A stretch of 64,000 nt of DNA from Alphaproteobacteria bacterium (GTDB lineage: Bacteria; Pseudomonadota; Alphaproteobacteria; CACIAM-22H2): the NCBI GenBank assembly GCA_016793165.1, contig JAEULA010000096.1, forward strand, positions 76,699 to 140,698, given 5' to 3'. Shown here in pieces: positions 1 to 41,012 of the stretch. The position numbers and the translations under genes are program-made. The notes below the pieces were generated by a model. It searched no databases. It saw only the letters and a list, made by a program, of their open reading frames with translations, and was not told the origin of the DNA. Numbering within the stretch: position 1 is the stretch's first letter; each line of letters starts with the position of its first letter.

Positions 1-1492
1 CGAGGCCGTGCGGCCACACCCGGACCCAAGCGCTCGCCGGCAGGCTGCCGGACGGAAAGCGCACGACGATCTGCTGTCCGGCGACCGTGTCGCCGGATGC
101 GGTGCCGGCGCCGCGCAGGGCGTGCACCGTGAAGGCCAGCGCATCCGGCCGCGCCCCCGCGCCGAACGCCGGCGCCGCGACCGCACCCCACGCGACGTCC
201 ATCACCGGCGCCATGGCGACGGCGACGGCGCCGGTGCGCAGGGTCGTCATGATCTGCGTCGTGGCGGCGTCGGACGTCGTGAGAAAGGGCGCGGCGGCGG
301 TGTTCGCCGCGGCGACGATCCGCGTGTCGCTGTCCGCCTGGCTCGCGACGCTTCGCGTGAGCCCGACGAGATCGGCCTCGATGTCGGTCACCGCGATGCG
401 CGCGAAGTCGCGCGTCAGCGCGGCGGGGAACGCCCCGCCCGTCCAGCCATTGAACAGCGGCACGGCGCCGGGTGCGCCGAAGGGACCGTTCGGGAGCATG
501 CCGATGCGCGGCATCGGCATGTCGTCGTTGGTCGTGCTGGGCGGGCGCAACGCGACCGCGGGGCCCGTGCCGGCGGTGAACAGCGTCGTCGAGGCGCCGA
601 TCGACGTGAGACCGGAAAGGTTGAGCCGCGCGACATGGGCGCTCGAGGCCGGTCCCTCGCTGGGGCCGCAGAACAGCACGACGCGGCCGGCGACGACGCC
701 GGCCGTCGCCTGGTTGCCGGTGCCGAGGGGATCGGCCCACAGATTGCCGAAGGGCGGTCCGCTCAGCGGATTGATCGAGCCCGATGCGAGGTAGCTCCAC
801 CAGTTCGCCACCGCGCCGGGATCGAGCGCACGCCCGCGATCGTCGAACGCCCAGAGCTTCAGTCCGGTCAAGGCGCCGCCGGTGTTGTTCTCCAGGATCA
901 CCTTGTTCGCGAAGGACGGCCGGTGCAGCTCGCGTGCGGGCCGGCGCGCATTGCCGAGGACGCCGCCCTCGAAGTTGAGCCCGACATAGGCGGCCTGGTC
1001 GGCGGGATCGGTGACGTCGGGCGGGAAACCGCCCTCGCGCAGTGCGCCGATCGTCGCGATTCCGCCGAGCGTGCCCGCCGGCACCTCGATCGCGAGGTGG
1101 CGCACGACCGGCCGTCCCGGCGCGCCCGCCGGCGTCGCCACGCCGTCGGGGGACGGGATGACGTTGCTGAGCGCGGCGAGGCGCAGCTCGACCTCGGGCA
1201 GCAGCGTCGCGAGCACGACGAGCGCGCCCGGCGCGAAGGCCTGCGACCCGTCCGCCTGGCGCAGGCCCGCAAGTCCTGCGGGCCGCGGCGCGGTCGCGAT
1301 GAAATAGGACGCGGTGCACCCGGCCGGCGCCCGCCACTGCATGCCCGACGGGAAGCTCGAGAGCGCGACGGCGAGGTCGACGCCGGGGGCGATGAGGTTC
1401 GGCAGCGTCGCGTCGGACTCGTCCTTGAACCACGGCCCGAGCTCCGGCGAGGCGAGGCCCAGTTGATGCGGATCGGGGTTGAGAAGGGCCAT
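1..1492 (-). CDS. Hypothetical protein, N-terminal part only (>=497 aa; runs off the left edge). Third gene of the giant-protein operon.
   Basis: Absent from the ORF track because it is edge-truncated. My own minus-strand translation from the ATG at 1490-1492 (MALLNPDPHQLGLASPELGPWFKDESDATLPNLIAPG...) stays open to nt 1 with GC3-rich codons. GGGAG lies 6 nt upstream, and the start is 11 nt after the stop of the 1083-aa gene. No family motif recognised. Confidence 0.6.
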   Translation of the reverse strand, partial: MALLNPDPHQLGLASPELGPWFKDESDATLPNLIAPGVDLAVALSSFPSGMQWRAPAGCTASYFIATAPRPAGLAGLRQADGSQAFAPGALVVLATLLPEVELRLAALSNVIPSPDGVATPAGAPGRPVVRHLAIEVPAGTLGGIATIGALREGGFPPDVTDPADQAAYVGLNFEGGVLGNARRPARELHRPSFANKVILENNTGGALTGLKLWAFDDRGRALDPGAVANWWSYLASGSINPLSGPPFGNLWADPLGTGNQATAGVVAGRVVLFCGPSEGPASSAHVARLNLSGLTSIGASTTLFTAGTGPAVALRPPSTTNDDMPMPRIGMLPNGPFGAPGAVPLFNGWTGGAFPAALTRDFARIAVTDIEADLVGLTRSVASQADSDTRIVAAANTAAAPFLTTSDAATTQIMTTLRTGAVAVAMAPVMDVAWGAVAAPAFGAGARPDALAFTVHALRGAGTASGDTVAGQQIVVRFPSGSLPASAWVRVWPHGL

Positions 1493-1503
1493 CGCGCGCT
1501 CCC

Positions 1504-4500
1504 TCAGACCAGCGTCGCTTCGGCCGGCACGCTTGCGCGACCGAGCGGATCGATCACCGCGACGCGATAGGTCATTCCGGCGCGCGCGACCGCGGCGGCG
1601 TCGACGCCGCTGATCTTGAAGGGGCCCGCGCCGCCGATCTCCGTCTCGGCGATCAGCGACGTCGAGTCCGGCACGAGCACCCGACCGTCGCCGTCGAGGA
1701 CCGCCGGCGTGACGCGCTCGACGCGCGCGCGATAGCTGCCGACGACGCCGCCCGAGAGCACGCGCGGATGGCTGAAGCGCACGACAACGTCGCTGAACGT
1801 GCCGTCGCCGACCGGCGTCGTCTCGAGGGTCAACGCCGTCGGCGGCTCGGGCGGCTGCGGCGGCACCAGCACGAGGCTCGCCGGATCCGAGGACTGGCTC
1901 CACAGGCCCTCGACGGCGCGGCCCGCGGCGGCGGAGCCGGGCGCCGCCTCGCCCTGGACCTCGGCCACCCAGTGGTATCGGACCCAGGGTTGCAGCAGCG
2001 CGCCCGTCGAGATGACGACCGGCCCGGTGTCGGAGAAGGCGACGCGCTGGCGGCCATCGGGGCCCGTCGCGGGCATCGCGCCGCTGGCGACGATCGGCAT
2101 GCGCAGCGCGTCCGTCGCGCCGAGGCTCGATCGGCGCAGGCGCCATGTCGCGGCCGCGGTGGCGCCGACCGTCAACGCGATCTCGATCACCGCCGCGTAG
2201 GTGTCCGCGTTCGTCAGCATGTCGCCAGGCCTGACCGTGATCGTCGGTCGCGCCGGCGGGTCCGCATTGGGGACCGCATAGACCAGCAGCGGCAGCGTCG
2301 CGAGATCGACGCGCGCGCCGGTCTGCGCCTCGGCGGCGATCCGGTAGAAGTTGAGCACGCGCAGGCTGCCCGAGACCGCGTGCCGGAACAGCTTCTTGCC
2401 CGTCGCGGCGTCCTGCACGACTCCCTGCAGGCGCTCGAAGAGATGCGCCCCGAACAGCGCGGCGTTCTCGCGGTAGCGGGCGGCGCGCGCGGGCGCGTCG
2501 TCCGCGCCGTCGAGGATCGTTGTCCGCCCGATCGCCTCGAGATGCGCGCGCAGCCGGTTCTCGTCGGTGTAGTAGACGGCGAAGTTGGCCTGCCCGGCGA
2601 GCGGCGCCCACTCGTACTCGACCGTCGCCAGTCCGGTGACGTCGGGGCGTCCCGAATACGACAGCTCGTCGGGCGGCGGCGCGAGCTGGCGCGGCGGCCG
2701 CGGGTCGTGCATCCGGATCGTCTGCGGCTCGGATGGGATCGAATCGGTGCCGTTCGTGTCGCGCCAGACCGCGGACATCCGCAGCTTGCGCGTCGACGCC
2801 GCGGCGAGCACGGGCCCGGTGAAGGTGAAGTCGATCGGCGCCGGTGCGCTCGGAACCGCAACGACGTGCTCGATCGTGCCGCCGGTCGGCGCGTACTTGC
2901 CGGTGAGCCGCAGTTCGCGCAGCAGGAACGAGCCCGGCGCGAGCGTCTCCACCGGCGGAACATCGACCTGGATGCGCACGGTTCCGCCCTGCCGCCGCGG
3001 ATCGGCCGGCTGCGCGTAGGTCGCGCGCAGCACCGGCCGCGGCGGCCGCGGTCGCGGGCCGGGATCGTTGACGACCGATGTCCACGGCGACCAGCGGCCG
3101 AAGCGGTCCTCCTGCGCCACACCGTAGCGGATCGGCTCCGCGCCGGCGCCGCGGTCGAACAGGAACCCCGTGCCCGGCTCGGGCGGCGGCGCGATCGCGG
3201 AGTTGGTCGCGCTCATCCCGAGCACGATCGGCAGATGCGCGCCGGCCGCGTTGGCGGCGTTCATCGACGCCGCCGTTCCGCTGGCCGCGGGCGTCTGCTT
3301 CTCCGCGGCGAGCAGGCCACCGGCGAGCACGCCGCCCACGGCCAGCTCGACCTCGCGACGCGCGTCGGGCGGCGTGACGGGCATCCAGCCGACGTGCCGG
3401 GCGGAGTCGATCCGCGGCGCCTGGGGCGGCAGCAGCGGCGCGCTGCGATCGGCGACGCAGAGCGTTCCCAGGCCGACATAGTCGCTGAGTTCCTGCAGCG
3501 GGTCGCCGCGGCCCTGGCTCAGCGTCACGCCGGGAAGCGGCTCGGCGAAGTTGCGCAGCGTGGCGAGCAGATCCTTCGCCGAGGCGAATCGATTGCCCGG
3601 CGGCAGCGCGGCCATCAGGACGTCGAAGGCGGAGCTGCCGAGCACGGGCGACGGGAAGTCCCGGAAGAATCCCGACACCCAGTAGAAGACGAGCGTGTCC
3701 TCCACCGCCGTGAACTCGCGGTCGCGCGCCTTGTAGCCGAGCAGCGCGGCGCAGCCGGGATCGAGCTGGCCCTGGAGGACGCGGTCGATGCGCCGCTGCG
3801 TCGCCGTCCCGATCGCCCGCGTGCCGTCGCGAAGCTCATCGGAGACGATCTGCTGCAGCGGCTCGACGCTCGTGTCGGCGATCAGGCTGTCGAGGTCGGC
3901 GGCGAGCGGCGCCGCGAGCGCATTGACCCGCAGCGCCTCGTAGGCCGGAGTCGCGGCCGGCGCGAACTCCGGGGCGACCATGCCGAGCGTCTCCTGGAGC
4001 GGGCGCCGCTTCGGGGCCTGGTCGAGCACGCGCAGCTCGGCGAGCGCGATCGCGTTCTCGATCGAGACGTAACGCGCCCCGCCGAGATGCGGCAGCGTGA
4101 GCAGGCTCCACGTCATGAAGTCGAAGGCCGGCAGATCGCGCGACTCGAGCCACTCCATGCCGGTGACCGACGCCGACCCTGTCAGGCGGATCTCGACGAT
4201 TCCCGGGCCGCTGAACGCGTAGGGGCGGATGCCGCGGCGGCCGAGCGAGGCCGGGCCGCGAATCGTCGCCGCGAACGCCTCCGCGACCATCCCGAGATTC
4301 GCGGTCGCGGTGCCGCCGGCGTCGGCGGTGCGCCGCGTGCGATCCAGGCGCGCGGCGCGCAGGCGCGAACGCGTGTCGAGCGCCTTCCGGACGGGAGCGG
4401 CGGGCGGCTGCGCGGGGAGACCGCCCCCGAGCGCGTCGGCACGGACGCGCGCCCATATGCAGCTCTCGCCGGGGCGCAGCGGGATGTAGGCGGTCACGGG

Positions 4501-4755
4501 GTTGTCGGCACGCAGCTCGAAGGGCGGCGTGACGATCCTGCGGCTGCTGTCCACGAACAGCGCGTCGCCGCGGAACTTCACGCCTTTTCCCTCCCGGGCG
4601 ACGACGCGGGAGATGAAGAACGGCGCGACGGGCAGCCCGAGCCCGGGATCCGCGTTGATGCGGATGTAATTGCCCGGCGGAACGTGCGGGTCGCTGTCGT
4701 CCGCGGCGAGCACCTGGGCGTTGAACAATGCGGGCGCGACGATCGGCATCGTCAT
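1504..4755 (-). CDS. Large hypothetical protein (1083 aa). Second gene of the giant-protein operon.
   Basis: ORF track 1504..4755. The ATG sits 1 nt after the TGA of the giant ORF (CTG TGA G ATG), with a GGGAGGG SD inside the last codons of the upstream gene. Composition is balanced, unlike the Arg-rich antisense ORFs. Pro-rich linkers (PGPRPRPPRP, PPQPPEPP) separate beta-rich segments. No signal peptide, TM segment or catalytic motif recognised. Confidence 0.75.
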   Translation of the reverse strand: MTMPIVAPALFNAQVLAADDSDPHVPPGNYIRINADPGLGLPVAPFFISRVVAREGKGVKFRGDALFVDSSRRIVTPPFELRADNPVTAYIPLRPGESCIWARVRADALGGGLPAQPPAAPVRKALDTRSRLRAARLDRTRRTADAGGTATANLGMVAEAFAATIRGPASLGRRGIRPYAFSGPGIVEIRLTGSASVTGMEWLESRDLPAFDFMTWSLLTLPHLGGARYVSIENAIALAELRVLDQAPKRRPLQETLGMVAPEFAPAATPAYEALRVNALAAPLAADLDSLIADTSVEPLQQIVSDELRDGTRAIGTATQRRIDRVLQGQLDPGCAALLGYKARDREFTAVEDTLVFYWVSGFFRDFPSPVLGSSAFDVLMAALPPGNRFASAKDLLATLRNFAEPLPGVTLSQGRGDPLQELSDYVGLGTLCVADRSAPLLPPQAPRIDSARHVGWMPVTPPDARREVELAVGGVLAGGLLAAEKQTPAASGTAASMNAANAAGAHLPIVLGMSATNSAIAPPPEPGTGFLFDRGAGAEPIRYGVAQEDRFGRWSPWTSVVNDPGPRPRPPRPVLRATYAQPADPRRQGGTVRIQVDVPPVETLAPGSFLLRELRLTGKYAPTGGTIEHVVAVPSAPAPIDFTFTGPVLAAASTRKLRMSAVWRDTNGTDSIPSEPQTIRMHDPRPPRQLAPPPDELSYSGRPDVTGLATVEYEWAPLAGQANFAVYYTDENRLRAHLEAIGRTTILDGADDAPARAARYRENAALFGAHLFERLQGVVQDAATGKKLFRHAVSGSLRVLNFYRIAAEAQTGARVDLATLPLLVYAVPNADPPARPTITVRPGDMLTNADTYAAVIEIALTVGATAAATWRLRRSSLGATDALRMPIVASGAMPATGPDGRQRVAFSDTGPVVISTGALLQPWVRYHWVAEVQGEAAPGSAAAGRAVEGLWSQSSDPASLVLVPPQPPEPPTALTLETTPVGDGTFSDVVVRFSHPRVLSGGVVGSYRARVERVTPAVLDGDGRVLVPDSTSLIAETEIGGAGPFKISGVDAAAVARAGMTYRVAVIDPLGRASVPAEATLV

Positions 4756-4756
4756 C

Positions 4757-7700
4757 TCACAGGCCCTCCCGCTCGAGAATCGCGGGCACGCCGCGCAGGC
4801 GCCGCCTGCCGACCCGCGGGCCGGCGCTCGTGGTGAACTCCAGGCTCAGCTCGAGATCGCCGGTCGCCGCTAGCGCGATCGCCGCCGCCGGCTTCAGCAG
4901 CAGGCGCGTCCAGCGCGCGTTGACGCGGAACGGCGCCAGCTCGACCCCGGCGGCGAAGCCGCGCAGCGGCGCGATGCGCGTGCCCAGATTGGGCTGTCCG
5001 CCGGCGGCGACGATCGTGCGCTCGCGCTTGAGCGCCTCGAGGCTGTCGACGAGAAGGCCTTCCAGCTTCCAGCTGCCGCCGTCGCGGCGCCACATCGCGT
5101 AGCTGCGCGCCTTGCGAAGCGGCAGCGGGAGCGTGTCGGCGCCGATCGACATCAAGGCGTCGTCGAGCGCGATGTCGCCTTCGACCAAGCCCGTCCCGGA
5201 TGCCATCGTCATGCCGTCCGGGATCACATGGTCGTCCGGCAGGTAGGGCGCGACGCCGCCGACGCGATAGCCGAGCGCCGCGATCAGCTCGTCGGGACCC
5301 GCGTAGCGCGAGGTGCGGAAGCGGGTCGCGCGAACGACCGGCCGGTCGCCGACCTTGCGCGCGAGGATCGTCAGGTCGTAGCCGGCGTCGGGCTGCAGGG
5401 CCATCGTCACCGCCGCGCTCGCGCCGCCGAACGGCGCCGCTTTCGGGATCAGGCAGGGTGCGGTCAGGATCGCCTCGTTGAGGCGGCGATCGCCCGTCGC
5501 GGCGAGATGCGCCGCGGGGTCGAGCCACGCCATCTCGACCTCGAGCGGCGCGGTCGCGTTGGTCAGCAGCTCCGGCGTCGCCTGCGGCGGCGGATCGGTG
5601 CGCCGCACCTCGATCACGAGCTCGCGGCCGTAGATCTCGAGCAACTGTTCGACGTGGCCACAGTCGAAATGCACCCAGATCGGATCGTCGGTGAAATGCG
5701 CGCCGCGGCCGTCGGCCGGCTCGATGCCGATCAGGTATCGCTCGATGTCGCGCGCATCGAAGCGGTACTCGTTGAGCCCGTCCTGCGGCGCGCTGGCGAG
5801 CGACGTATCGTCCGCCGCCGTCCGGAAGCGCCACGTCTCGGTTCCGCCGCTCTGCCATGGCGAGGAATCGAGATCGGGATCGGGCGGCGTCGTCTGGCTG
5901 CCGCTCGGCTGCCAGGACTTCCAGCTCCAGCCGATGACCATCTCGTACTCGGTGTTCGCCGCCAGCGCGATCTCGCGGCGTTCATCGGGTTGCGCCGCGA
6001 GGACATCGACCAGAGAATCGCGCAGCTGAGTCTGCACGGTCATGTCGGTCGCGCGCGCGTCGATCGCGCGCTGATCGACGCCGCAGATCGCGACCAGGGA
6101 GACGACCTTTCCCGGCGGCGCCACGACGCGGAACCCGTCCCAGGGACCGGTCGCGGCACGGGCCGGCTGGAAGACGACGAGGCGGCAGTGCTCGTGCGCT
6201 TGCGTCTCCGGCACGCGCACGGCCCAGGCATCGCGGGGCGTGTCGCCGACGATGCCGGTGACCGTGACGTCGCCGGCGCTCGTCGGAGGCGACAGGTCGT
6301 CGAGGCTCCCCGGCGCGCCCGGCGGCCGTCCCCCCTCCCCGTCGGCCTCGCGGCAGCACACGGCAGCCAGCACCGACTCGCCGCCGCCGCCGGTCAGCTC
6401 GACGACGCGAATGTCCGGCGCGTCGAGGCGGATCGTCTGCAGCTCGCGCTGACGGCCGGTCGTCTGCGCCCGCGCGACACGGCTACCCGCGCCGTTGATC
6501 GCGACGGCGCTCACCGGCTGCGTGGTGAACAGCATCAGCTTGAGATCGACGCGCGTGCAGGGAGCCGTCAGCGTGATGCGCAGGCCGGCAGAGAAGAACT
6601 GGAGCTCGGGAATGCGGTCGACGCCGGGGCGGTCGGGCTCCGGCCGCGCATCGATCTTGTCGACGAGGCGCAGCTCGCGCGCGCCCGAGAGCGTCTCGAA
6701 GCGCAGCCCGCGATGCGCGAGCGTGGCGACGCGATCGACCGTCGGCTTGAGACCCTCGAAATCCACGCAGGCAACGGCGGCGCCGATGCAGCAGATCCGA
6801 TGGATGACCGCCTGGCCCTTGCCGCCCTTGAGCACGATAGTCGCGACCGGCGCCCCGGTCCTGCTCGCGAAGCGCAGCACCTGCGTCACGCGGACCGCCT
6901 CGGTGGAGCGCGCGGCGGCCACGTCGCCGCCCGCCTCGTCGCGGCCGATGCCGTCCACCGGCTCCGCCTCGAACAGCATGACATGGACTTCGACGACGGG
7001 GCAGGGATGCGGCAACGCGATGCGCACGCCGGAGGCCGGGAAGCGGATCTCGGCCGCGCCGTCCTCGCCGGGAAGCGGCGCGACCCGCTCGTCGACGACG
7101 TCGACCGCGCGCAGCCGGCCGCGGCCGTCGAGCGGCGTGAAGACGAAGTCCCTGTAGGTCAGCGTCGTCACCGCGCGGTCGTTCGGCTTCAACGCGTCGA
7201 AGCTTTCGCACACGCGATCCGGCAGCTGCGCTGCGCCGTGACAGCAGATCTTGAAGACGGCCGCCTCGTTGCCGCCGCCGCTCAGGCGCAGCGTGCGGAT
7301 CGCGGGTGCGTCGAAGCGCAGCACGAGCGGCACGGCCTGGCGGAGCGATGTCTGGTCGGTGTCGACGCGCGTGCCGTCGGGAGCGAGCGCCTCGCCCCGG
7401 ACGGCCGCCGCCGTGAACTGCATGACGTGGATCTCGACGTGCGCGCACGGCGTGCGCAGCACGATCTCGATGCCGGAATCGGGAATGCGCAGATCGGCGC
7501 GTCCGTCGCTGCCGTTGCGCGGCGGGTCGACGCCGAGATCGACGTCGTCGGCGAGAAGGATGCGCGCGCGGCTGTCGATCGTGCGGATCGTCATCCCCGG
7601 GCGCTCGAGGACCAGCACCGGATCGGGGTTCGGCGACAGGCCCGCGAAATCGTCGCACGGCGCCTCGGCCGGTTCGTCCGGCCGCTGCGCCGGCGCCTCG

Positions 7701-10700
7701 CAGATCAGCAGCGTGACCGAGGGCCGCGCCACGCGCTGGTCGAAGCGCGCCTCCCAGGGAAGCGCCAGATCGCGCAGGCCCGTCGTCGCGACCTGGCGCG
7801 CCGCCGGCAGCCGGTAGGCGCTCGACACCTCGACGCCGCCGATGGTCGTGTTGAAGGGCATCGCCGTCACTACGCCGGGCACGACGTGGCAGCCGAGCCG
7901 GTCGACGAGCGCCTGCAGGTCGCGACCGACGATGCGCGTCGCGCCGATGCGGACGGCGGACTCCCCGACGACGACGAAGCGGCTCGGATAGGGCGGCAGG
8001 CCCGGCCGCTCCGCGCGCATTTCCACGGCGTGGTGGCCGGCGCGCATGGCCGAGCGGCCGAGGACGCAAGCGGTGCGCGGCGCGGGCTTCGGCGTGCAGA
8101 TGTCCTCGATCGTCTCGGCAGGATCGCCGTCCTGACTCGCACCGCCGTCGTCGAGATTGACGACCCAGGACCACGGGTCCCAGTCGAGGAGCTTGAGGTT
8201 CGGGCCCTCATGTTCGGAGGGCATCGGATTGTCGACGCCGGACGCGTCCGGCTGACGATAGGGTGTCGCCGTCCAGACGGACTGCAGCGCGCCGTCCTCC
8301 GCCGGCGACTCGACCTCGGCATCGTCGCTGGCGCGGCGGAGCACGAGGCTGTCGAGCCGGTAGGCGTATTTGAGCTCGCTCGAGCCGAACCACTTCGGCT
8401 GCGCGGGCGTCGGGCCGGGCAGGAACTGCGCCGCGCTGCCCATCGCGTTCTGGACGTAATGCGCGAAGTGGATCACCGGCGCGGTGTCGGGCCACACGGT
8501 ATTGTTGGCGTCGACGCCCGCCGCCGTTGCGGTCGCCGTCTGCGACGCGGCGTCGGCGGGATCCTGCGGCGGATTGGAGAAGATCGGAGCGTCGGACGGC
8601 GTCCCCTTGGTCGCGACACCCATGATGCGGTCGCGGCGGTCGGTCAGGCTGATGCCCTTCACCGGGCTCGGCGGCGGCGGCGGCTCGGTGTCGACATCGG
8701 GCGCGATCGAGATGCCGACGCAGCCCTCGAGCGAGAAGAAGAGCAGGTCGACCTCGCCGCAGAACTCGCCCTCGATCTTCACCTGCACGTCGCCGGCGCT
8801 CTCGCGCGCCTCGAGCACGAGCTCGCCATGCGCCGAGATCGACGTCACCACCATGTCGAGCTTGCCGGCGACGAACACGCCGCCCTTGATGATCAGCGGC
8901 GCCGTGCCGAAGCCGACGAGCACCTTCGCCGAGGCGTCGAGCTCGATCGGGCCCGCCTTCCAGGCGATCTCCCAGCCCGCACCGAAACCGACCGAGAAGC
9001 CGTCGAAGTCGAAGCGCGTGTCGCCGCCGAGATCCGGCAGGCCGCCCTGCTCGATCATCAGATAGGCCCAGGCGCGCGCGTCGATCACGTCGGGCAGCAA
9101 CGTGAGCGTGACCGGCTCGCCGTAGCGGCCGTGCTGCTCCTGGCCGTCGGAGCCGATGCGCACGTAGACGTCGCCGGGCGTCTCCGGATACGGGAAATAG
9201 GCGGCGAAGGGGACGTTGAGCGTCAGGACCTTCGGGATCGTGTAGGTCGCCGACACCGCGAGCTTGATCGCCTCGTCGTCGATCACGATCAGGCCGGTGA
9301 TCGTGCTCTCGGCGCCGCGCTCGTCCTTCGCGATCAGGTCCGGGACCTTGATGATGTTGACGTCGACGCCGAAGATCACTTCCGGCTCGGGGAAGGCGAC
9401 GACGACCATGCCCGCGCAGCTGAGCGAGAAGCTCACGTCGGGCAGCGTGCCGACCACCGCGCCGATGCCGAGCGCGAACTGGTCCTTCTGCGGGACGTAC
9501 TTGTCCTCGGGCCGCAGGTTCCACCAGTCGAGCTCCTTGAGCACCGGGTCGGGGTTGGCGACCGGTGCCCGCGTCCCGTTCATCGTGAACAGGCCCTTGA
9601 AGCCGTAGATCGCGAGGCCCGACTGCGCGAGCGGCAGCGGGGTCGCGAACTGGACGCCGAGATAGAGCGACAGGAACGCCGACGGCGCGATCTCCGGCGG
9701 CAGGCCGACGGCGAGCGCCGCCTCGCAGCCCAGCCCGAGCGGGATGATGCTCGCGTCGACGCCGGCGCGCAGGATGCCGTTGTCCTCGATGCGCACGCGG
9801 CCTTCGCCCTCGAGCACGCCCGCCACGTTGGCGCTCAGCACGAGGCCGCGCAGCTCGAACACGGGGATCGGGCTGCCGTCGGTGAAGGTGAGGCGGATGA
9901 CCGCCTCGGTGATCTCGATCAGGCCGATCTCGATCGCGACCGCGAGGCGCGCCTCGATCCACAGCGAGCCCGTACCGACGGCGATCTCGACGATGCGCAG
10001 CAGATTGCCGAGCGTGCCCGAGATCTCCCAGCGGCCCGGGTCCTCGATCTCCAGCGACGCGGTGTCGAAGACCACGCCGAAGCGGCTCCAGCCGGTCTGC
10101 GAGCTGTCGTATTCGACGCCGACGCGCTTGTAGCGGATCTTCAGCGGGCTGTCGGGCATCGTCCTCAGCCCGAGCACGCCGCTGTCGATGTGGAGCGTGC
10201 ACACGTAGTCGGTGACGATCCGCACCTGCATGTCCGGGCCCGGATCGGAGATCGATCGCATCTCCGTCTCGAAGGCCGCCGAGGTCAGCGCCACCTTCGA
10301 TCCCGGCTGCAGAATATCGGTCACGCTGCCGACCACGCCGAGCGAGATCATCGCGGCGATGCGCGCCCCCGCGCCGAGCGCGCCGGTCCCGGTCACGCCC
10401 GACATCAGTGCCGGCCCGACCGCGAGCGCCGTCGTCAGCGTCTTGTTGTCGGTCCAGGCGAGGCCGTTGGGATCGCCCTCCGACTTGATGCCCAGCGCGA
10501 CCTTCGTGTAGCCGGTGCGCGTGTCGTGGGTCCACGTCGCGAAGACGGTGAGCACCTCCTTCGCCGGATCGTCGCTGATCGTCACCGGCACCGGCGCGCC
10601 ACCGGCATCGGGCAGCGGCATCGACGTCGGCGTCCAGGAGAACTCCGCCTCGGCGAGGGTCGGGATCGCATCCCGGAGCTCCGACACCGTCGGGCTGTCC

Positions 10701-13075
10701 CAGACGATGCGCAGCTTCACCATGTAGTCGAGCTTCGGCGATCCGGACGGCGCGGCGACGACGTCGCGCCCGGCCGCGGGCACGAGCGAGCGCCTCAGCG
10801 CGGCCCCGGTCAGCGCCTCGTCATCCTTGATCGCCGTGTCCGCCGTCGGCGTGCCGCCGACCGCGTAGATGTCGACCCGGCGATAGGTCTCGCGCACGGA
10901 TTCATGCGAGCTCAGCACGCCGTCCTCGAAGCGCGCATCCGGCCATGCCGTCGATCCCGGCTGCTCGACATGGATCAGGCGGCCGACCAGCTCGATCGCG
11001 GTCTCGTCGTCGAAGCCGTCGCCGGTCGGCGCGCCGCCCGACGGCGACGCCTGCTCGCCGCGGGCAAAGACCTCCGCGCCCGCGAGCGGCGTGCCGAGCT
11101 GGCCGGGCTGCAGGACGGTGAGCAGCGACGTCGCGCGCGTCGCACGATCGGCGGCGAGCGTCGCGTTGTAGACATCGTCGCCGATGTCGTCGCAGCGCCC
11201 GATCACGAGGAACTGCGCGCCCGGATAGCGCGCGGCCCAGGCCAGGAGGTCCGACTGCGAGAGCGCGCCCGACGCCGGCGCGCCGGCGGGTTTGGCCTCG
11301 CCCCAGCGCAGCTCGTTGTCGGTGTCGAAGTCCATGAGGATCTGGACGTGGCGGTCGAGCGCCGGCGCCGGCGCGACCGCATCGGCGACGGTCACGCGCG
11401 CAAGCCCGTCCGCCGGCACGACGACGCCGCGCTTGTCCGCCGACAGCGTCGCCTGCGCGGCGGTCGCGTAGAACGCACCCTCGGCGTGGAAATCGCTGAG
11501 GTCGAAGGTGTTCTCGACCGCGGCCAGCGCCAGCGCCGCGCTCGCGTCGACGGCGTCGAAGACGCCGGCCTCGCAGCCGACGAGAAGCGCCCCGGACTCG
11601 CGGATCTGAAGCTGCAAGCGGGTGAGACGGACGTCGTCGTCGCCGATCGTCTCGCTGAGAACGATCATCCGATCGCCGGCGAGCGTGTCGAGATCGGTCG
11701 CGAAGAAGGTCGGCCCGGTCCAGGTCTCGCTGCGTCCCTCGATCCGCCACTCGAACGTTCCCGGCGTCCCCACCGACGAGACCGCCGTAAACACGGTGCG
11801 CTCGATGTCGGCGGCGATACCGCCGAGATGCGCGACGTTCGTAAATTCCTGGCCCGCGATCTCGGCGTCGATCCTCGGCCCCGTGCCGGAGGCGACGAAG
11901 CGGAACGTGACCTCCGGATGCGGGAAGTCGGTCGGCGTCCCGTCGACGTCCACGACCTCGATCGGCGTGACGCGCAGGACCTGGCCGTGACGCACCGCGC
12001 CGGTCGAGGCGTCACCCTCGTCCTCGGTGCCGTCCGGCCAGGACCACCGCGCCTTCCAGTTCAGCGTCGCGGCGTCACTGGGCGCCGAGGGGACCTGGAG
12101 GCCCGCGGCGATCGTCACCGTGGCCCCCTGCGCGGCAGTGATCGTCACCTTGTGCGCGACGCCGTCGAGCGACGCGCTGGGCAGCAGGTCGGCCGCCGGC
12201 AGCTGGCGGAACTGGAACGACGCCGGATCGAGCGGCGAGCGACCGAACTGGATCTCCAGCTCGCCCTGCAGCCCGACCGGCGACCCGATCAGCACGTTCT
12301 TCACGCCGCCAGAGATGTCACCGAACGCCGGCAGGTTCCGCGGCGCGTAGAACGTGCCCTCGCGGATCGCCACGCCCACCCAGGCCGCGTCCTGGCCGCG
12401 CGCGAGCACGTCGGGCGCGCTGTAGTCGTCGGAGAAGTCGAACAGGATCCGGCCGACCGTGAATCCGAACTCGCTGCCGCCGATGAAGAAGTGCGGCGGC
12501 GTGCATTCCAGCGACATCACCGCCCCGGACGGCAGCGTCGGATCGAGCGGATCGGGACGGTCGACGAACTTGACGGTCAGGCCCGCGCCCGCGTCCTCGA
12601 AGCGAAGGACGGCAGCGCCGGTGATCCTGACGTTCTCTCGCGCAGGGTCGCGGAGAAGATGACGCGGCATCGTGCCGTCGTCGGGCACGAAGATCGCGGG
12701 CTCGAGACCGTCGACGACGAGTTCGAAGGCGTCGAGCATCAGGTCGAGACGCCATGCGGTCGCCGCGGGTTCCAGGTTCTGCGTTCCCGTGAGCGGCGCG
12801 CGGAGGATCCCGAACTGCATCGGGATCCCCGTCTGGAGCAGCGGCAGCTTCAGCGTTCCGATTCCGATCCGGAAGCCGGTCGGAATCTCGGTGAGCGCCG
12901 TGTCGAGCGGCTGCAGCGTCCCGTGATGGAAGATCGCGCCGGCCGCGTGCCGCGTCTCGTGATCGGTGACGACGAAGCGTTCATAGAACGCCTGCACGTC
13001 GTCCGGCAGCAACGCGCTGGCCCGGTTCGCCAGGAACACGAGGTCGATGAGTGGAATCCCCGCCCGGCGAGCCAT
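4757..13075 (-). CDS. Giant hypothetical protein (2772 aa from MARRAGIPLIDL) with an internal OmpA-like module, a beta-rich core, a poly-Pro hinge and three Cys-framed repeats.
   Basis: ORF track 4757..13249. I place the start at the ATG at 13073-13075 because GGAGGCGGGAGGGGGG lies directly upstream, and the 58 codons before it are low-complexity (PGRPRRAGGGG). Coding-like composition runs over 8.3 kb. It is the first gene of its operon, with mlrC-like divergent upstream. Confidence 0.8.
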   Translation of the reverse strand: MARRAGIPLIDLVFLANRASALLPDDVQAFYERFVVTDHETRHAAGAIFHHGTLQPLDTALTEIPTGFRIGIGTLKLPLLQTGIPMQFGILRAPLTGTQNLEPAATAWRLDLMLDAFELVVDGLEPAIFVPDDGTMPRHLLRDPARENVRITGAAVLRFEDAGAGLTVKFVDRPDPLDPTLPSGAVMSLECTPPHFFIGGSEFGFTVGRILFDFSDDYSAPDVLARGQDAAWVGVAIREGTFYAPRNLPAFGDISGGVKNVLIGSPVGLQGELEIQFGRSPLDPASFQFRQLPAADLLPSASLDGVAHKVTITAAQGATVTIAAGLQVPSAPSDAATLNWKARWSWPDGTEDEGDASTGAVRHGQVLRVTPIEVVDVDGTPTDFPHPEVTFRFVASGTGPRIDAEIAGQEFTNVAHLGGIAADIERTVFTAVSSVGTPGTFEWRIEGRSETWTGPTFFATDLDTLAGDRMIVLSETIGDDDVRLTRLQLQIRESGALLVGCEAGVFDAVDASAALALAAVENTFDLSDFHAEGAFYATAAQATLSADKRGVVVPADGLARVTVADAVAPAPALDRHVQILMDFDTDNELRWGEAKPAGAPASGALSQSDLLAWAARYPGAQFLVIGRCDDIGDDVYNATLAADRATRATSLLTVLQPGQLGTPLAGAEVFARGEQASPSGGAPTGDGFDDETAIELVGRLIHVEQPGSTAWPDARFEDGVLSSHESVRETYRRVDIYAVGGTPTADTAIKDDEALTGAALRRSLVPAAGRDVVAAPSGSPKLDYMVKLRIVWDSPTVSELRDAIPTLAEAEFSWTPTSMPLPDAGGAPVPVTISDDPAKEVLTVFATWTHDTRTGYTKVALGIKSEGDPNGLAWTDNKTLTTALAVGPALMSGVTGTGALGAGARIAAMISLGVVGSVTDILQPGSKVALTSAAFETEMRSISDPGPDMQVRIVTDYVCTLHIDSGVLGLRTMPDSPLKIRYKRVGVEYDSSQTGWSRFGVVFDTASLEIEDPGRWEISGTLGNLLRIVEIAVGTGSLWIEARLAVAIEIGLIEITEAVIRLTFTDGSPIPVFELRGLVLSANVAGVLEGEGRVRIEDNGILRAGVDASIIPLGLGCEAALAVGLPPEIAPSAFLSLYLGVQFATPLPLAQSGLAIYGFKGLFTMNGTRAPVANPDPVLKELDWWNLRPEDKYVPQKDQFALGIGAVVGTLPDVSFSLSCAGMVVVAFPEPEVIFGVDVNIIKVPDLIAKDERGAESTITGLIVIDDEAIKLAVSATYTIPKVLTLNVPFAAYFPYPETPGDVYVRIGSDGQEQHGRYGEPVTLTLLPDVIDARAWAYLMIEQGGLPDLGGDTRFDFDGFSVGFGAGWEIAWKAGPIELDASAKVLVGFGTAPLIIKGGVFVAGKLDMVVTSISAHGELVLEARESAGDVQVKIEGEFCGEVDLLFFSLEGCVGISIAPDVDTEPPPPPSPVKGISLTDRRDRIMGVATKGTPSDAPIFSNPPQDPADAASQTATATAAGVDANNTVWPDTAPVIHFAHYVQNAMGSAAQFLPGPTPAQPKWFGSSELKYAYRLDSLVLRRASDDAEVESPAEDGALQSVWTATPYRQPDASGVDNPMPSEHEGPNLKLLDWDPWSWVVNLDDGGASQDGDPAETIEDICTPKPAPRTACVLGRSAMRAGHHAVEMRAERPGLPPYPSRFVVVGESAVRIGATRIVGRDLQALVDRLGCHVVPGVVTAMPFNTTIGGVEVSSAYRLPAARQVATTGLRDLALPWEARFDQRVARPSVTLLICEAPAQRPDEPAEAPCDDFAGLSPNPDPVLVLERPGMTIRTIDSRARILLADDVDLGVDPPRNGSDGRADLRIPDSGIEIVLRTPCAHVEIHVMQFTAAAVRGEALAPDGTRVDTDQTSLRQAVPLVLRFDAPAIRTLRLSGGGNEAAVFKICCHGAAQLPDRVCESFDALKPNDRAVTTLTYRDFVFTPLDGRGRLRAVDVVDERVAPLPGEDGAAEIRFPASGVRIALPHPCPVVEVHVMLFEAEPVDGIGRDEAGGDVAAARSTEAVRVTQVLRFASRTGAPVATIVLKGGKGQAVIHRICCIGAAVACVDFEGLKPTVDRVATLAHRGLRFETLSGARELRLVDKIDARPEPDRPGVDRIPELQFFSAGLRITLTAPCTRVDLKLMLFTTQPVSAVAINGAGSRVARAQTTGRQRELQTIRLDAPDIRVVELTGGGGESVLAAVCCREADGEGGRPPGAPGSLDDLSPPTSAGDVTVTGIVGDTPRDAWAVRVPETQAHEHCRLVVFQPARAATGPWDGFRVVAPPGKVVSLVAICGVDQRAIDARATDMTVQTQLRDSLVDVLAAQPDERREIALAANTEYEMVIGWSWKSWQPSGSQTTPPDPDLDSSPWQSGGTETWRFRTAADDTSLASAPQDGLNEYRFDARDIERYLIGIEPADGRGAHFTDDPIWVHFDCGHVEQLLEIYGRELVIEVRRTDPPPQATPELLTNATAPLEVEMAWLDPAAHLAATGDRRLNEAILTAPCLIPKAAPFGGASAAVTMALQPDAGYDLTILARKVGDRPVVRATRFRTSRYAGPDELIAALGYRVGGVAPYLPDDHVIPDGMTMASGTGLVEGDIALDDALMSIGADTLPLPLRKARSYAMWRRDGGSWKLEGLLVDSLEALKRERTIVAAGGQPNLGTRIAPLRGFAAGVELAPFRVNARWTRLLLKPAAAIALAATGDLELSLEFTTSAGPRVGRRRLRGVPAILEREGL
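6353..7657 (-). repeat. Three tandem protein-level repeats (139, 141, 139 aa; giant protein aa 1807-2241). Each is framed C-x-x-F ... P-C ... C-C.
   Basis: Repeat A runs CDDFAGLSPN...RTPCAHVEIHVMQF...LSGGGNEAAVFKICC. Repeat B runs CESFDALKPN...HPCPVVEVHVMLF...LKGGKGQAVIHRICC. Repeat C runs CVDFEGLKPT...APCTRVDLKLMLF...LTGGGGESVLAAVCC. Boundary codons were checked at 7646-7657 (CDDF) and 6353-6358 (CC). Confidence 0.8.
11036..11353 (-). other. OmpA/MotB C-terminal-like peptidoglycan-binding module inside the giant protein (aa ~575-680).
   Basis: RHVQILMDFDTDNEL...LLAWAARYPGAQFLVIGRCDDIGDDVYNATLAADRATRATSLL...VFARGEQ matches the OmpA_C pattern (F-D-x-x-L; hydrophobic-G-H-T-D-x-x-G-x-x-x-x-N-x-x-L-S-x-x-R-A-x-x-V-x-x-x-L; G-x-G-E). 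GRCDD replaces GHTD. The GRCDD codons were verified at 11186-11200. Confidence 0.6.
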
Positions 13076-13347
13076 CCCCCCTCCCGCCTCCACGATCGAC
13101 GGCAACTCTAGAGAGCGGCGATCGATGGAACAATGCGTCCAGATGATCGAGGGCGCCGTGGCGGCATTGTCACAGGAATTTCGGAGCACAGGCCTCGCGA
13201 CGCGGGCATCCGGACCACCGCCGCCGGCACGACGCGGGCGGCCAGGCATGCGATCGCGCTCCCGCCGTCGGGGCGCGACGGGCGATACTGCGCGACGGGG
13301 CGCGGCGCCGATCGGCGGAGCCGCGCCGTCGTCGGAGATCGCTGTCG
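13076..13347. promoter_or_regulatory. Divergent intergenic region between the giant-protein operon and the mlrC-like gene.
   Basis: A 272-bp gap between two divergent starts. It contains a locally lower-GC patch (13100-13195) with CACAGG repeated at 13171 and 13187 and several CGATCG palindromes. No consensus promoter could be assigned. Confidence 0.35.
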
Positions 13348-14796
13348 ATGCGCATGTTCGTCGCCGCCCTGGGCACCGAGACCAACACCTTCGCGCCGCT
13401 GCCCGTCGACCGCTTGGCCTTCGAGCGCGCGTTCTATGCGCCGCCGGGCCGGCATCCGGAGACTCCGACGCTCACCACGGCGCCGATCGTCGCGGCGCGG
13501 GCGCGCGCCGCGCGCGACGGCTTCACCCTGGTCGAGGGCACTTCGGCCTGGGCCGAGCCGGCCGGCCTGGTGTCGCGCACGGCCTACGAGGGCCTGCGCG
13601 ACGAGATCCTGGACCAGCTGCGCGCCGCGATGCCCGTCGACATCGCGCTGTTCGGCATGCACGGCGCGATGGTCGCCGACGGCTACGACGACACGGAGGG
13701 CGATCTGCTCGCCCGCGCCCGCGAGATCGTCGGCCCCGACGCGATCATCGGCGCCGAGCACGACCTGCATTGCCATCTCACGCCCAAGCGGGTCGCGGCC
13801 GCGGACCTGATCGTGCTGTTCAAGGAGTTCCCGCACACCGACTTCCTGGCGCGCGCCGAGGAGCTCGTGGACCTGGCGCTGCGCGCGGCGCGGCGCGAGA
13901 TCCGGCCGGTGACGGCGCTGCACGACTGCCGCCTGATCGGCGGCGGCTACATGACCAGCAATCCCGTGGGCCGCGCCTTCGTCGAGCGCGTGCGGGCGCT
14001 CGAAGGCAAGGACGGCATCCTCTCGATCTCGATCGGCCACGGCTTCCACGCCGCCGACGTGCCCGAGGTCGGCAGCAAGGTGCTGGTGATCGCCGACGGC
14101 GACCGGGCGAAGGCCGAGGCGCTCGCCGCGACGCTGGGGCGCGAGCTCGTCGCGATGGGGCGCGCCGGCTCGCCGCACCACGTGAAGCCCGAAGAGACCG
14201 TCGCCGTCGCGAACGGCTATCCCGGCCGCCCGATCGTCTTCGCCGATCGCTGGGACAACCCGGGCGGCGGCGTACCGGGCGACGGCGCGATCATGATCGA
14301 GACGCTGCTCGCGCATGCCGACGTGCCGGCGGCGATCGGCGTCCTCTGGGATCCGATCGCGGTCGAGTTCTGCCGTTCGGCCGGCGCGGGCGGCAATCTC
14401 TGGCTCCGTATCGGCGGCAAGTCGACCCCCGTCTCCGGTCGGCCGGTCGATGCCCATGTGGTCGTACGCGCGGTGACCGACGACCTGGTCATCCCCTTCG
14501 AGCAGAGCCTCGTCTCGTTCGGCCCGTCGGCCGCGGTCACGATCGGCACGCTCGACATCGTCCTCGGCTCCAAGCGCACCCAGACCTTCGCGCCGGAGGC
14601 GTTCACGAAGCTCGGCGTCGACCTGGCGGCCAAGAAGATCGTGGTCGTGAAGTCGTCGAACCACTTCCACGCGGCGTTCTCGAGGATCGCCCATGCGATC
14701 CATCACCTCGACACCGGCGGCCCCTTCCCGCCCGACCCGACCCGGGTCACCTACCGGAAGGCCCGGCGCCCGATCGCCCCGCTCGACGCCGTGTGA
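13348..14796 (+). CDS. MlrC-like (microcystinase C family, peptidase M81) protein.
   Basis: 482 aa. The N-terminal MRMFVAALGTETNTF, then GMHGAMV...D.EGDLL...H.DL.CH, and the C-terminal VVVKSSNHFHAAF...LDTGGP are the layout I associate with the DUF1485 plus MlrC_C architecture. Confidence 0.8.
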   Translation: MRMFVAALGTETNTFAPLPVDRLAFERAFYAPPGRHPETPTLTTAPIVAARARAARDGFTLVEGTSAWAEPAGLVSRTAYEGLRDEILDQLRAAMPVDIALFGMHGAMVADGYDDTEGDLLARAREIVGPDAIIGAEHDLHCHLTPKRVAAADLIVLFKEFPHTDFLARAEELVDLALRAARREIRPVTALHDCRLIGGGYMTSNPVGRAFVERVRALEGKDGILSISIGHGFHAADVPEVGSKVLVIADGDRAKAEALAATLGRELVAMGRAGSPHHVKPEETVAVANGYPGRPIVFADRWDNPGGGVPGDGAIMIETLLAHADVPAAIGVLWDPIAVEFCRSAGAGGNLWLRIGGKSTPVSGRPVDAHVVVRAVTDDLVIPFEQSLVSFGPSAAVTIGTLDIVLGSKRTQTFAPEAFTKLGVDLAAKKIVVVKSSNHFHAAFSRIAHAIHHLDTGGPFPPDPTRVTYRKARRPIAPLDAV

Positions 14797-14892
14797 GGCG
14801 GGCGCGCAGGCGCGACGATCGGTTGCGGCCGACTCACGGCCGATGCACGCGGTGCGCTAGACTGCGGGCACCCCAACGAAGGGAGGCCTGCG

Positions 14893-15813
14893 ATGACTCG
14901 ACGAGATCGTCCACGTCTCACGGCACCGGTTGCGGTGCTTGCCGCGCTCGCCGCGGCCACGCTCTGGGCGGAGCCGGCCGCCGCCTGGTGGTTCTTCAAC
15001 AAGGGAAAGGCGGCCGTCGACGCCGCGGACGATGCCGGCAAGAAGCGCGCGTCCTACTACGACAAGCTCGCCGATCCGACGGCGACGGACGCCCAGATCG
15101 ACGCGGCCAAGACCGCCGCGGACACCGCGACGAAGGACGCGCTCAAGAAGACCACCGAGTTCGGCACCAGCGTGCCCGGCACGTCGATCACCGGTCCGCC
15201 GCCGACTTCCGTCAAGGGCGGCATCTGGCAGGCGCTCAAGGAGACGCTGAAGTGGCTCATCTCCTCGACGACCGACCGGCCGGGCCCCAGCGACGCGCAA
15301 CTCGCCGCGGCGATGCCCGAATCCGGCGTGCTCGTCGCCGATCAGACATCGAGCTATCTGGACTTCGACTACGGCACCGATTCCCGCATGGCTCCGGTCC
15401 TGTTCGGCACGGCGCAGTTCACCGCGTCGCTGTCGACCCTCGTCATCGACGGGACCAGCTTCGGCGTCGCGGAGCTGGCGGCCCTGCCGGCGCCGGATCG
15501 TGCGCTCGCCGCGCTCTCCGGCGACGCCGTCGTCGCCGGGCTGACGGGCGAGATCGCGGCGACCTCGCCGAGCTGGGATCCGTTCGACCACCTGTCCGAC
15601 CCGGCGGCCTACCGAGCCGTCTTCGAGGTCGAGTTCACGAGCTTCGATCCTGGCGAGGATGCGATCGGCGGGCGGCTGTTCTATCTCGCCGTCGGACCGT
15701 TCGCCGAGATCGCCGAGCCCGGGACGCTCGCGGTCCTGGCCGGCGCCGGCTGCATCTTCGTCCTGGCGCGCCGACGCCCGGCCGGGCGTTCGCCCGGAAC
15801 GATCGTCGCCTAG
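14893..15813 (+). CDS. Secreted PEP-CTERM-type sorting-signal protein, otherwise of unknown function.
   Basis: GAAGGGAGG SD. N-terminal signal peptide (APVAVLAALAAATLWAEPAAA). C-terminus IAEPGTLAVLAGAGCIFVLARRRP is a PEP-like motif, then a hydrophobic helix, then a basic cluster. Confidence 0.7.
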   Translation: MTRRDRPRLTAPVAVLAALAAATLWAEPAAAWWFFNKGKAAVDAADDAGKKRASYYDKLADPTATDAQIDAAKTAADTATKDALKKTTEFGTSVPGTSITGPPPTSVKGGIWQALKETLKWLISSTTDRPGPSDAQLAAAMPESGVLVADQTSSYLDFDYGTDSRMAPVLFGTAQFTASLSTLVIDGTSFGVAELAALPAPDRALAALSGDAVVAGLTGEIAATSPSWDPFDHLSDPAAYRAVFEVEFTSFDPGEDAIGGRLFYLAVGPFAEIAEPGTLAVLAGAGCIFVLARRRPAGRSPGTIVA

Positions 15814-15912
15814 GTCCCGGGCGGCGGGCGATGTCCCCGCAGCCCCTCGATGGCGGCCGCGGGGCGGCGCCTGGCGCCGCCGCGATCGCGGCGGCGACGG
15901 CGGGCCGGCGGT

Positions 15913-15942
15913 TTGACAAGCCGCCGCGCCCGACGGCTCAAT
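15913..15942 (+). promoter_or_regulatory. Candidate sigma70-type promoter upstream of the cyclase gene.
   Basis: Perfect TTGACA at 15913-15918, followed 17-18 nt later by GCTCAAT (a weak -10). About 115 nt upstream of the ATG at 16057. Confidence 0.25.
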
Positions 15943-41001: not shown

Positions 41002-41012
41002 CGCGGAGGATC

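Follow-up and report, generated by a model that had tools for sequence, protein, structure and literature searches.

What kind of system is encoded by three giant genes that lie nose to tail on one strand and that resemble no family in the usual libraries? The question is raised by a 64,000-nucleotide stretch of an alphaproteobacterial contig (hereafter the window, numbered from its first letter). At its left end the minus-strand genes A, B and C were described, from the sequence alone, as an operon that might encode a peptidoglycan-tethered envelope machine or a delivered toxin or adhesin complex (hereafter the original prediction). We found that A, B and C form one translationally coupled operon and that A-B(-C) is a self-contained, horizontally mobile cassette. 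This cassette matches no characterised system tested, the only recognisable parts being an OmpA-like module, fibronectin type III/immunoglobulin-like (FN3/Ig) domains, a barrel-like sheet and a degenerate phospholipase D (PLD) fold. Tentatively, and with somewhat less than even confidence, we read it as an exported, peptidoglycan-binding, membrane-active complex of toxin or adhesin type.

An operon that travels as a cassette

The G+C content of the window is 72 %, so that long open reading frames (ORFs) occur in many frames. A coding signature was found only in the three minus-strand frames of A, B and C, whose G+C content at third codon positions (GC3) is 0.92 over the full length; such a value throughout, in a genome of 72 % G+C, identifies them as real genes. 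The ORF of A can be extended upstream by 58 codons, to an ATG at 13249 (13076-13249). Since GC3 drops to about 0.82 in this block, since A homologues begin at 'MxRxAGIPL' and none has the extension, and since a Shine-Dalgarno (SD) sequence precedes the ATG at 13075, the 2772-aa protein is the real product. The sequence upstream of A reads '...GGAGGCGGGAGGGGGGATG', with the SD GGAGGCGGGAGGGGGG followed by the ATG; a promoter and terminator scan found no sigma-70 consensus or terminator there.

The A/B junction, 'GAGCGGGAGGGCCTGTGAgATG' (GAG CGG GAG GGC CTG TGA g ATG), leaves a gap of 1 nt and the B/C junction, 'TGAGGGAGCGCGCGATG' (TGA GGGAG CGCGCG ATG), one of 11 nt, with a GGGAG-type SD ahead of each of the three genes. 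In the window, the SD of B sits within the final codons of A: the conserved terminal residues L-E-R-E-G-L (4757-4780) are encoded by GAGCGGGAGGGCCTG, which doubles as this SD. Because the C-terminal 'EREGL' of A is also the ribosome-binding site of B, its conservation is at least partly an RNA-level constraint. Distant relatives end in '...WEE(TD)', the Glu-Glu pair of which would normally be written with SD-like GAGGAG codons, judging from the proteins. ORFs, GC3 and junctions thus agree with the three tightly spaced giant genes, each with its own SD, that the original prediction had outlined.

The distribution of the cassette was assessed on one genome per species, i.e. 185,579 species, among which 120 relatives are encoded in at least eight phyla; 78 loci were kept. 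The hosts are Alpha-, Beta- and Gammaproteobacteria, Actinomycetota, Chloroflexota, Gemmatimonadota, Acidobacteriota, Myxococcota, Bacteroidota and a Nitrospira bin. Actinomycetota or Chloroflexota account for 28 of the 78 kept loci, isolate genomes among them, and the Actinomycetota isolates carrying the cassette include Demequina, Planotetraspora, Ornithinimicrobium, Herbidospora and Pseudactinotalea. Among 5.8 billion proteins, homologues of A form 85 clusters, most of them full-length (2,650-2,970 aa, coverage 50-100 %) and all unnamed or labelled 'hypothetical' or 'OmpA family' only, with no function assigned; those of B form 56 clusters, none with a Pfam domain. An exact-sequence look-up of the A and B proteins of the window returned no record.

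B comes after A on the same strand in all loci that are long enough, and C stands next in about 50 loci, which answers the question of co-occurrence left by the original prediction. Between A and B the median gap is -1 nt, with 54 of 61 loci in the range -10 to +20, an SD-like motif is present inside the last codons of A in 53 of the 61, and the median B-to-C gap across loci is 12 nt; the proposed coupling thereby gains the backing of a tight spacing conserved across phyla. Full length and tight coupling persist, with cross-phylum identities of 30-79 %, so that all three genes are under purifying selection. One subclade (Demequina, Sabulicella, Psychrobacter, several Paracoccus, Sphingomonas and a Nitrosomonas bin) has A and B only, which indicates that C can be dispensed with or has a substitute elsewhere; protein lengths in these loci pointed to no compensating extra domain. 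C was not found downstream in L002, L020, L023, L025, L027, L031, L036, L052, L058 and L064, the downstream sequence searched being as little as <1 kb (L064). In L061, a Burkholderiales metagenome-assembled genome, about 6.5 kb separate the end of A (~6870) from the start of B (~13437), and this spacer could be an insertion (insertion sequence element, extra genes) or a misassembly.

Nothing accompanies the cassette from host to host. Clustering of flanking ORFs in about 80 loci revealed no conserved flanking gene, since families recurred in 10 loci at most and were generic, and the annotated neighbourhoods examined consist of unrelated housekeeping genes. The window shares no flanking synteny with L003 and L004, whose A proteins are 76-79 % identical to its own, and one copy of the cassette is present on the Paracoccus plasmid pAMI4.

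Domain architecture of the three proteins

Pfam, NCBIfam, PHROGs and PADLOC contained nothing significant for A, B and the window part of C (the Pfam scan of A and B was reported to E ≤ 0.1, that of PADLOC-DB v2 to E ≤ 1 for all three), as expected from the original prediction, which had recognised no family. When family profiles were compared with solved structures, the OmpA-like module of A alone was retrieved, with no match for B, C or the Cys-framed repeat of A. A Kyte-Doolittle scan found no signal-like N-terminal hydrophobic stretch or strong transmembrane segment in A, B or C, in agreement with the earlier view of their N-termini; the N-terminal sequence of A is conserved as a structural element. 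The features discussed below are collected in Table 1.

Several modules of A that had been proposed from the sequence were recovered, namely the OmpA-like module, the proline hinge and three Cys-framed repeats. Taken as a single sequence, the OmpA-like module is sub-threshold in the libraries (Pal model E = 0.057; no Pfam match). With the A family profile, aa ~611-735 match OprF (5u1h) at E = 1e-5, as well as several OmpA, Pal and YiaD chains at E 0.003-0.6. Within the signature 'GRCDDIG..YN..LA..RA', R627, N637, L640 and R644 are invariant among 45 homologues, and D629 and D630 are conserved at 90 % or more. The peptidoglycan-binding signature of the family ('TD...NxxLSxxRA', with the Asp and Arg for diaminopimelate) is retained in A; its N, L and R are near-invariant in 20 distant giants, and it is kept in relatives with about 20-28 % identity over the modelled segment. 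The module keeps the residues predicted to bind peptidoglycan.

The central part of A was modelled with AlphaFold2 (AF2) over aa 760-1800, with a mean predicted local distance difference test score (pLDDT) of 76.8 and a predicted template modelling score (pTM) of 0.47. The Gly-zipper segment was modelled as a hairpin with helices at model residues 119-132 and 140-159, at a low pLDDT of 56-60; the Kyte-Doolittle value of aa 900-918 is 1.61. The beta core that follows had been delimited at about 450 aa; a strand-rich core is indeed present and its extent is larger. Its AF2 blocks are mostly at pLDDT 80-94 and form a strand meander with mostly tight turns. The 25 long strands have a mean length of 12.6 residues and two contrasting faces, one strongly hydrophobic and one polar (mean Kyte-Doolittle +2.3 versus -0.65), and the core is the most conserved region of A (0.69). 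In Foldseek searches, the nearest folds of the model are the largest beta barrels, with SlpA (8ae1) at E = 4e-5, followed by FimD/PapC ushers, the SprA type 9 translocon, LptD, BtuB and porins; these matches to the core span E = 4e-5 to 1e-3, but their template modelling (TM) scores are only 0.15-0.29. Comparison with viral structures gave only porin-like noise. Given the low TM-scores, 'barrel-like amphipathic sheet' is the limit of the evidence.

An alternative would make of this core an open hydrophobic groove, bridge-like or similar to the ApoB belt, within a wall-anchored lipid-handling machine in which C would bind head groups. Long amphipathic strands with one strongly hydrophobic face are what such a machine would need, the ApoB100 beta belt and LptD are among the weak Foldseek matches, and one partner has a PLD-family fold. 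The idea nevertheless appears very unlikely to us: the ApoB100 matches have probabilities of 0.3-0.5 and TM-scores of 0.03-0.13, AsmA, TamB, DUF490 and Chorein have no Pfam match, TamB and VPS13 are absent from the top Foldseek matches of the core, A has no N-terminal membrane anchor, the modelled secondary structure shows no repeating five-strand-plus-helix unit, and the rarity of the cassette argues against lipid homeostasis.

Past the hinge, the three tandem repeats align pairwise with local alignment z-scores of 31-38, and their profile matched no Pfam family or solved structure. They are the most variable part of A (conservation 0.39-0.44) and are for that reason counted for an exposed binding surface. 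The cysteines of A behave as pairs: 1439/1452, 1660/1670 and 2297/2331 are invariant, 44 of 45 homologues have Cys at 1792 and as many at 1807, and pair 2025/2096 reaches a phi coefficient of 0.96 (24 homologues with both residues, 20 with neither, out of 45), with further repeat pairs at 0.91 (1877/1945), 0.91 (2103/2240) and 0.90 (1944/1956). Residues gained and lost together in this way usually mark structural disulfides, so that the repeat cysteines look like disulfides; the paired covariation argues that the C-terminal half of A folds outside the cytoplasm, in an oxidising place.

B had been left without features by the original prediction, a description that no longer holds: its AF2 model (mean pLDDT 87) strings together about eight FN3/Ig-like beta sandwiches and an alpha/beta insert at aa ~235-405. 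Foldseek returned generic FN3/Ig arrays only (titin-filament/thick-filament proteins, cytokine receptors, mastigoneme, complement MG domains), plus gpJ of the lambda tail tip as a weak match (E about 1e-7). Giant proteins without signals that combine FN3 domains and a peptidoglycan-binding module are typical of virions. In a JGI metagenome contig that carries P0083, a distant trio of 2358, 1197 and 1116 aa is followed, at 15264-17578, by a Phage_tail_beta and pectate-lyase-like gene, the sole phage-like neighbour seen. These observations would suit a structural module from a phage or another mobile element, such as an ejection or tail-tip apparatus, that has decayed or been domesticated and now has no cellular function. 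We consider this extremely improbable, since neither the 50,697 phage records nor the IMG/VR viral contigs contain the cassette, PHROGs gave no match, no phage genes flank the loci examined, and length and coupling are kept under purifying selection. A prophage module was rejected on its absence from viral data.

C runs past nt 1, as predicted: the window holds the N-terminal ~45 % of a protein that is about 1100 aa long in relatives, and this part shares 78 % identity with aa 1-482 of the 1097-aa product of the third L003 gene. What the original prediction had missed is the other end, a PLD-like domain that lies beyond nt 1 and was read from relatives. After an N-terminal extension of 690 aa, the last ~340 aa of the C family match a canonical PLD of Mycetohabitans with an hhalign probability of 94.6 % (E = 6.5e-8). 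The motif scaffold retains its order ('YxET...', '...VDD....G..H'). Both HKD motifs (HxK(x)4D(x)6GSxN) are lost, the first being replaced by 'ERxExAA...' and the second reading 'LHMASTTVIVDD...G..H', without the Lys and with a His only 60-90 % conserved. As Pfam brought only 1 of 39 C homologues to E = 0.1 on PLDc_2, the PLD link comes from profile-profile and pairwise comparisons, by which the C-terminal part of C is assigned a degenerate PLD-like fold. Having lost the HKD catalytic residues, C is probably a lipid- or phosphodiester-binding accessory and not an enzyme. By hhalign, C is unrelated to A and to B.

Table 1. Position of the cassette genes, of the modules of protein A and of the adjoining regions in the window
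Feature	Position (nt)	Strand	Description	Evidence
Gene A	4757..13075	(-)	Giant multidomain protein of 2772 aa; stop codon 4757-4759	ORF, GC3 0.92
A, N-terminal region, aa 1-590	11306..13075	(-)	Conserved (0.53-0.60), without assignable fold	
A, OmpA-like peptidoglycan-binding module, aa ~600-740	10856..11278	(-)	'GRCDDIGDDVYNATLAADRA'	Family profile
A, hydrophobic Gly-zipper segment, aa 878-920	10316..10444	(-)	Two-helix hairpin	AF2
A, beta core, aa 927-1457	8705..10297	(-)	Antiparallel sheet of ~25-30 long, amphipathic strands; remote relationship to Pfam DUF6603	
A, proline hinge EPPPPPSPV, aa 1464-1472	8660..8686	(-)	'PPxPPxPV' family-wide consensus	Sequence
A, post-hinge conserved region, aa 1473-1806	7658..8659	(-)	Cys pairs 1660/1670 and 1792/1807; beta-sandwich end	AF2 (beta-sandwich end)
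A, three tandem ~145-aa Cys-framed repeats	6353..7657	(-)	aa 1807-1955, 1956-2102 and 2103-2241	
A, C-terminal region, aa 2242-2772	4760..6352	(-)	Conserved; SD of B in the last codons	
Gene B	1504..4755	(-)	1083 aa	ORF, GC3
Gene C	1..1492	(-)	Start at 1492, off the window edge at nt 1; 497 codons inside	
Intergenic region between A and the divergent M81/MlrC peptidase gene	13076..13347	(.)	Presumed operon promoter, and SD GGAGGCGGGAGGGGGG	
Genes beyond this intergenic region	13348-25660		Unrelated to the cassette	

An uncharacterised superfamily and its resemblance to known systems

The beta core reaches far beyond the cassette. In a library clustered at 50 % identity, its profile retrieved 1,396 representatives at E ≤ 0.001, of which 482 at E ≤ 1e-30, and the best 150 of the 1,396 are nearly all 2,200-2,960 aa long with the core at residues ~900-1500. 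The members checked carry a domain of unknown function (DUF) label at most and none is characterised; a literature search found no paper on DUF6603 or on this superfamily. A belongs to a large, uniformly uncharacterised superfamily, touched by Pfam only as a DUF. DUF6603 (PF20248) was detected in 4 of 20 distant giants (best E 9.6e-13), in which OmpA traces and no other domains were seen. Relatives from Demequina and P0082 score 20.7-24.1 bits against a gathering threshold of 27, and A of the window has no DUF6603 match at E ≤ 0.1 in Pfam. Since A has no match and these relatives stay below the threshold, we treat A as a related superfamily member and not as a formal member of DUF6603.

The closest link is with a 'DUF6603 domain-containing protein' of Mycetohabitans endofungorum, aa 355-837 of which align with aa 1003-1477 of A (E = 6e-14), while aa 168-240, near its N-terminus, resemble aa 204-275 of A (BLASTP E = 0.001). 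This 2496-aa giant is encoded together with a 1322-aa beta-rich protein and a PLD with two HKD motifs (PLDc_2, 1e-16), in a locus flanked by transposases and RelE/ParE toxin-antitoxin genes. The locus (L082; megaplasmid NZ_CP062180.1, 8444-21465) is a permuted variant of the system, and its 1322-aa protein appears to bear one copy of the Cys-framed repeat. The Mycetohabitans giant thus shares with A the core, an N-terminal motif, the type of Cys-framed repeat and an operon with a PLD and a beta-rich protein. It differs from A in having no OmpA-family Pfam match, in ending in ConA-like lectin domains (weak, below the Pfam cut-off), in its permuted order and in its canonical PLD partner.

A distant trio of 2480, 1225 and 1087 aa is encoded on replicon pRtrCIAT899c of R. 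tropici CIAT 899. Its first protein has an OmpA-like match and its third matches the PLD-like domain of C with an hhalign probability of 99.6 %; this C homologue has lost at least the second, HxK-bearing motif. A metagenomic relative has the same arrangement (2358/1197/1116 aa). Between B and the 1322-aa and 1225-aa proteins, similarity is not significant (hhalign/BLASTP E = 0.02-0.07), and the three collinear short motifs in common are no more than suggestive of homology.

Among characterised proteins, OmpA and SlpA/OmpM (Deinococcus, diderm Firmicutes) likewise combine a wall-binding module and a large antiparallel beta sheet in one chain, and the A core has its best structural match in SlpA, whose barrel counts 30 strands, but with TM-scores of 0.15-0.16. 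Unlike them, A has no signal peptide, extends to ~2,800 aa with extra termini, occurs in monoderm hosts and is a rare accessory gene. In inverse autotransporters (type Ve; intimin/invasin), a peptidoglycan-binding part, a barrel, a linker, Ig-like repeats and a distal disulfide-containing domain follow one another, an order that the predicted domains of A appear to parallel. A differs in its ~25-30 strands versus 12, in the lack of a Sec signal, in its two partner proteins and in its monoderm hosts, and no inverse-autotransporter barrel, LysM, Big, RTX, Rhs, haemagglutinin or cadherin domain matched A or B in Pfam at E ≤ 0.1.

This parallel, with OmpA and SlpA for its first two elements, is what would recommend a role in the producer's own envelope, as a peptidoglycan-anchored adhesin, a surface-layer-like assembly or a wall-membrane tether. 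B is a chain of FN3 domains, as in many surface fibres, and the cysteines look like disulfide pairs. We hold such a role to be unlikely all the same, for the cassette is too rare for a core function (120 relatives in 185,579 species genomes), no Sec signal was seen, it occurs in monoderms without an outer membrane, and a PLD-fold partner, together with the canonical PLD of Mycetohabitans, fits a conflict role better. In the narrower form of a resident outer-membrane protein, this reading was rejected on the missing signal peptide and the monoderm hosts.

The layout of the cassette may also be compared with that of Tc (ABC) toxins, which consist of three co-transcribed giants, broadly comparable in size to A, B and C, that bear Ig-like binding domains but no classical signal peptides and are transferred horizontally; the likeness would lie in the self-contained arrangement of three giant genes. 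Unlike Tc toxins, A has a beta core and not an alpha-helical channel, and there is no hypervariable toxic C-terminus. No VRP1, TcA_TcB_BD, SpvB or RHS/YD repeats were found in A, B or C with Pfam and NCBIfam, and no Tc, Rhs or teneurin structure was among the top 50 Foldseek matches of B or of A aa 760-1800. With PLD effectors (Tle5-type phospholipases of the type VI secretion system, Nuc-type nucleases), C shares the fold scaffold, without both HxK(x)4D motifs. For sheath, tube, baseplate and spike proteins of extracellular contractile injection systems (eCIS) or phage tails, no Pfam or PHROG match was obtained in A, B or C, and none was present in the annotated neighbourhoods. Thus, eCIS or baseplate proteins, Tc toxins, TamB/AsmA and known adhesins, against which the original prediction had to be checked, gave no confident hits; Tc toxin, eCIS, Rhs/RTX adhesin and AsmA/TamB readings were rejected on the absence of their defining domains.

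Candidate roles at the cell envelope

The cassette is mobile, rare and self-contained, and it unites a peptidoglycan site, an amphipathic sheet, variable repeats, an FN3 arm and a PLD-fold partner, a combination that points to an envelope-acting conflict module. In the mechanism that we infer, the A-B core, usually with C, would build an extracytoplasmic complex acting on the cell envelope. A would be its scaffold: the OmpA-like module would bind peptidoglycan, the hydrophobic hairpin and the amphipathic beta sheet would engage or insert into a membrane and, past the hinge, A would display disulfide-stapled, fast-evolving beta-sandwich repeats and the conserved C-terminal domain. B may act as an extended FN3/Ig-like stalk or binding arm, and C as a PLD-fold accessory that binds lipids or phosphodiesters, a canonical PLD taking its place in the distant variant. 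The logic of such a cassette would be akin to that of a multi-component toxin or of a giant inverse-autotransporter-type adhesin directed at other cells, and not to that of a housekeeping system. The peptidoglycan-tethered, envelope-associated location put forward in the original prediction fits the invariant binding signature and the paired cysteines, whether the candidate is a tethered machine or a delivered toxin or adhesin.

Several results weigh against an exported complex of this kind. No Tat motif or lipobox was seen in A, B or C, and no export or secretion gene is conserved beside the cassette in about 80 loci. The route outside the window that had been predicted is thereby narrowed, as no examined genome encodes one directly beside the cassette. 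The disulfide-type cysteines conflict with the absent export signal. Beside the cassette there is no conserved immunity-like gene, an unusual state for antibacterial toxins; A and B yielded no catalytic motif, and C is without HKD residues and missing in one subclade. As for the barrel, it is read from one AF2 model (pTM 0.47) with low TM-scores, and an open amphipathic sheet or groove would be equally compatible with the core. The 28 loci of Actinomycetota and Chloroflexota further indicate that A is not simply a resident of the producer's outer membrane and that a barrel assembled by the machinery for beta-barrel assembly (BAM) is not its general state.

The patchy, cross-phylum, horizontally transferred distribution and the variable neighbourhoods would also suit anti-phage or other defence, envelope-guarding or abortive, in which the giants would guard or sense the envelope (the OmpA-like module recognising peptidoglycan or muropeptides), the amphipathic sheet would perforate the membrane on infection and the PLD-fold protein would be effector or adaptor. 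Defence systems include the peptidoglycan-binding, OmpA-like ZorB and PLD-fold effectors (Mokosh). A system of this sort would work without signal peptides, in monoderms and diderms, and requires no immunity gene, and some copies adjoin toxin-antitoxin, helix-turn-helix or transposase genes. What makes defence improbable in our view is that PADLOC gave no match for A, B or the window part of C, that no ATPase, helicase or nuclease motif was found in them (Pfam, NCBIfam, PHROGs, PADLOC), that most neighbourhoods examined are housekeeping regions and not defence islands, that the PLD-like domain lacks catalytic residues, and that paired Cys covariation argues for an oxidising compartment around the C-terminal half of A.

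Returning to an exported toxin- or adhesin-like complex, its boldest form would be a new class, i.e. an autonomous three-protein machine that penetrates envelopes. It would be exported without Sec or Tat, insert a giant single-chain barrel without BAM and hence act in, or on, monoderm and diderm cells alike, be held on peptidoglycan and bring variable, disulfide-stapled repeats, an FN3 arm and a PLD-fold cargo or adaptor; we see a small chance that this is so. If true, a previously unrecognised principle of toxin delivery or secretion would have spread horizontally. Whatever the role, conservation argues for function, and hence for a widespread protein machine without prior study. It joins a peptidoglycan module, a barrel-like sheet and disulfide-type cysteines in proteins without signal peptide, in hosts of both Gram-positive and Gram-negative type, and so bears on whether export and insertion of large beta-sheet membrane proteins can do without Sec and BAM. 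Were a toxin, adhesin or defence role to be shown, the cassette would represent a new family of inter-organismal conflict systems and provide a function for DUF6603. Being compact (~15 kb, three genes, no helpers nearby), the cassette is directly testable by transfer.

In the remainder of the window, the genes beyond the intergenic region upstream of A include an M81/MlrC metallopeptidase (13348-14796), a class III cyclase with TPR repeats (16024-17892), a PAP2 phosphatase, a peptidase A4, a PhyH dioxygenase, an SDR and a MacB-like ABC permease. Further along, at ~32800-41600, no long ORF passes a filter on GC3 and the G+C content at second codon positions, and overlapping ORFs of 800-1200 aa have poor codon signatures; in this region the high-GC3 phase switches every 1-2 kb and the AT skew is strongly positive.

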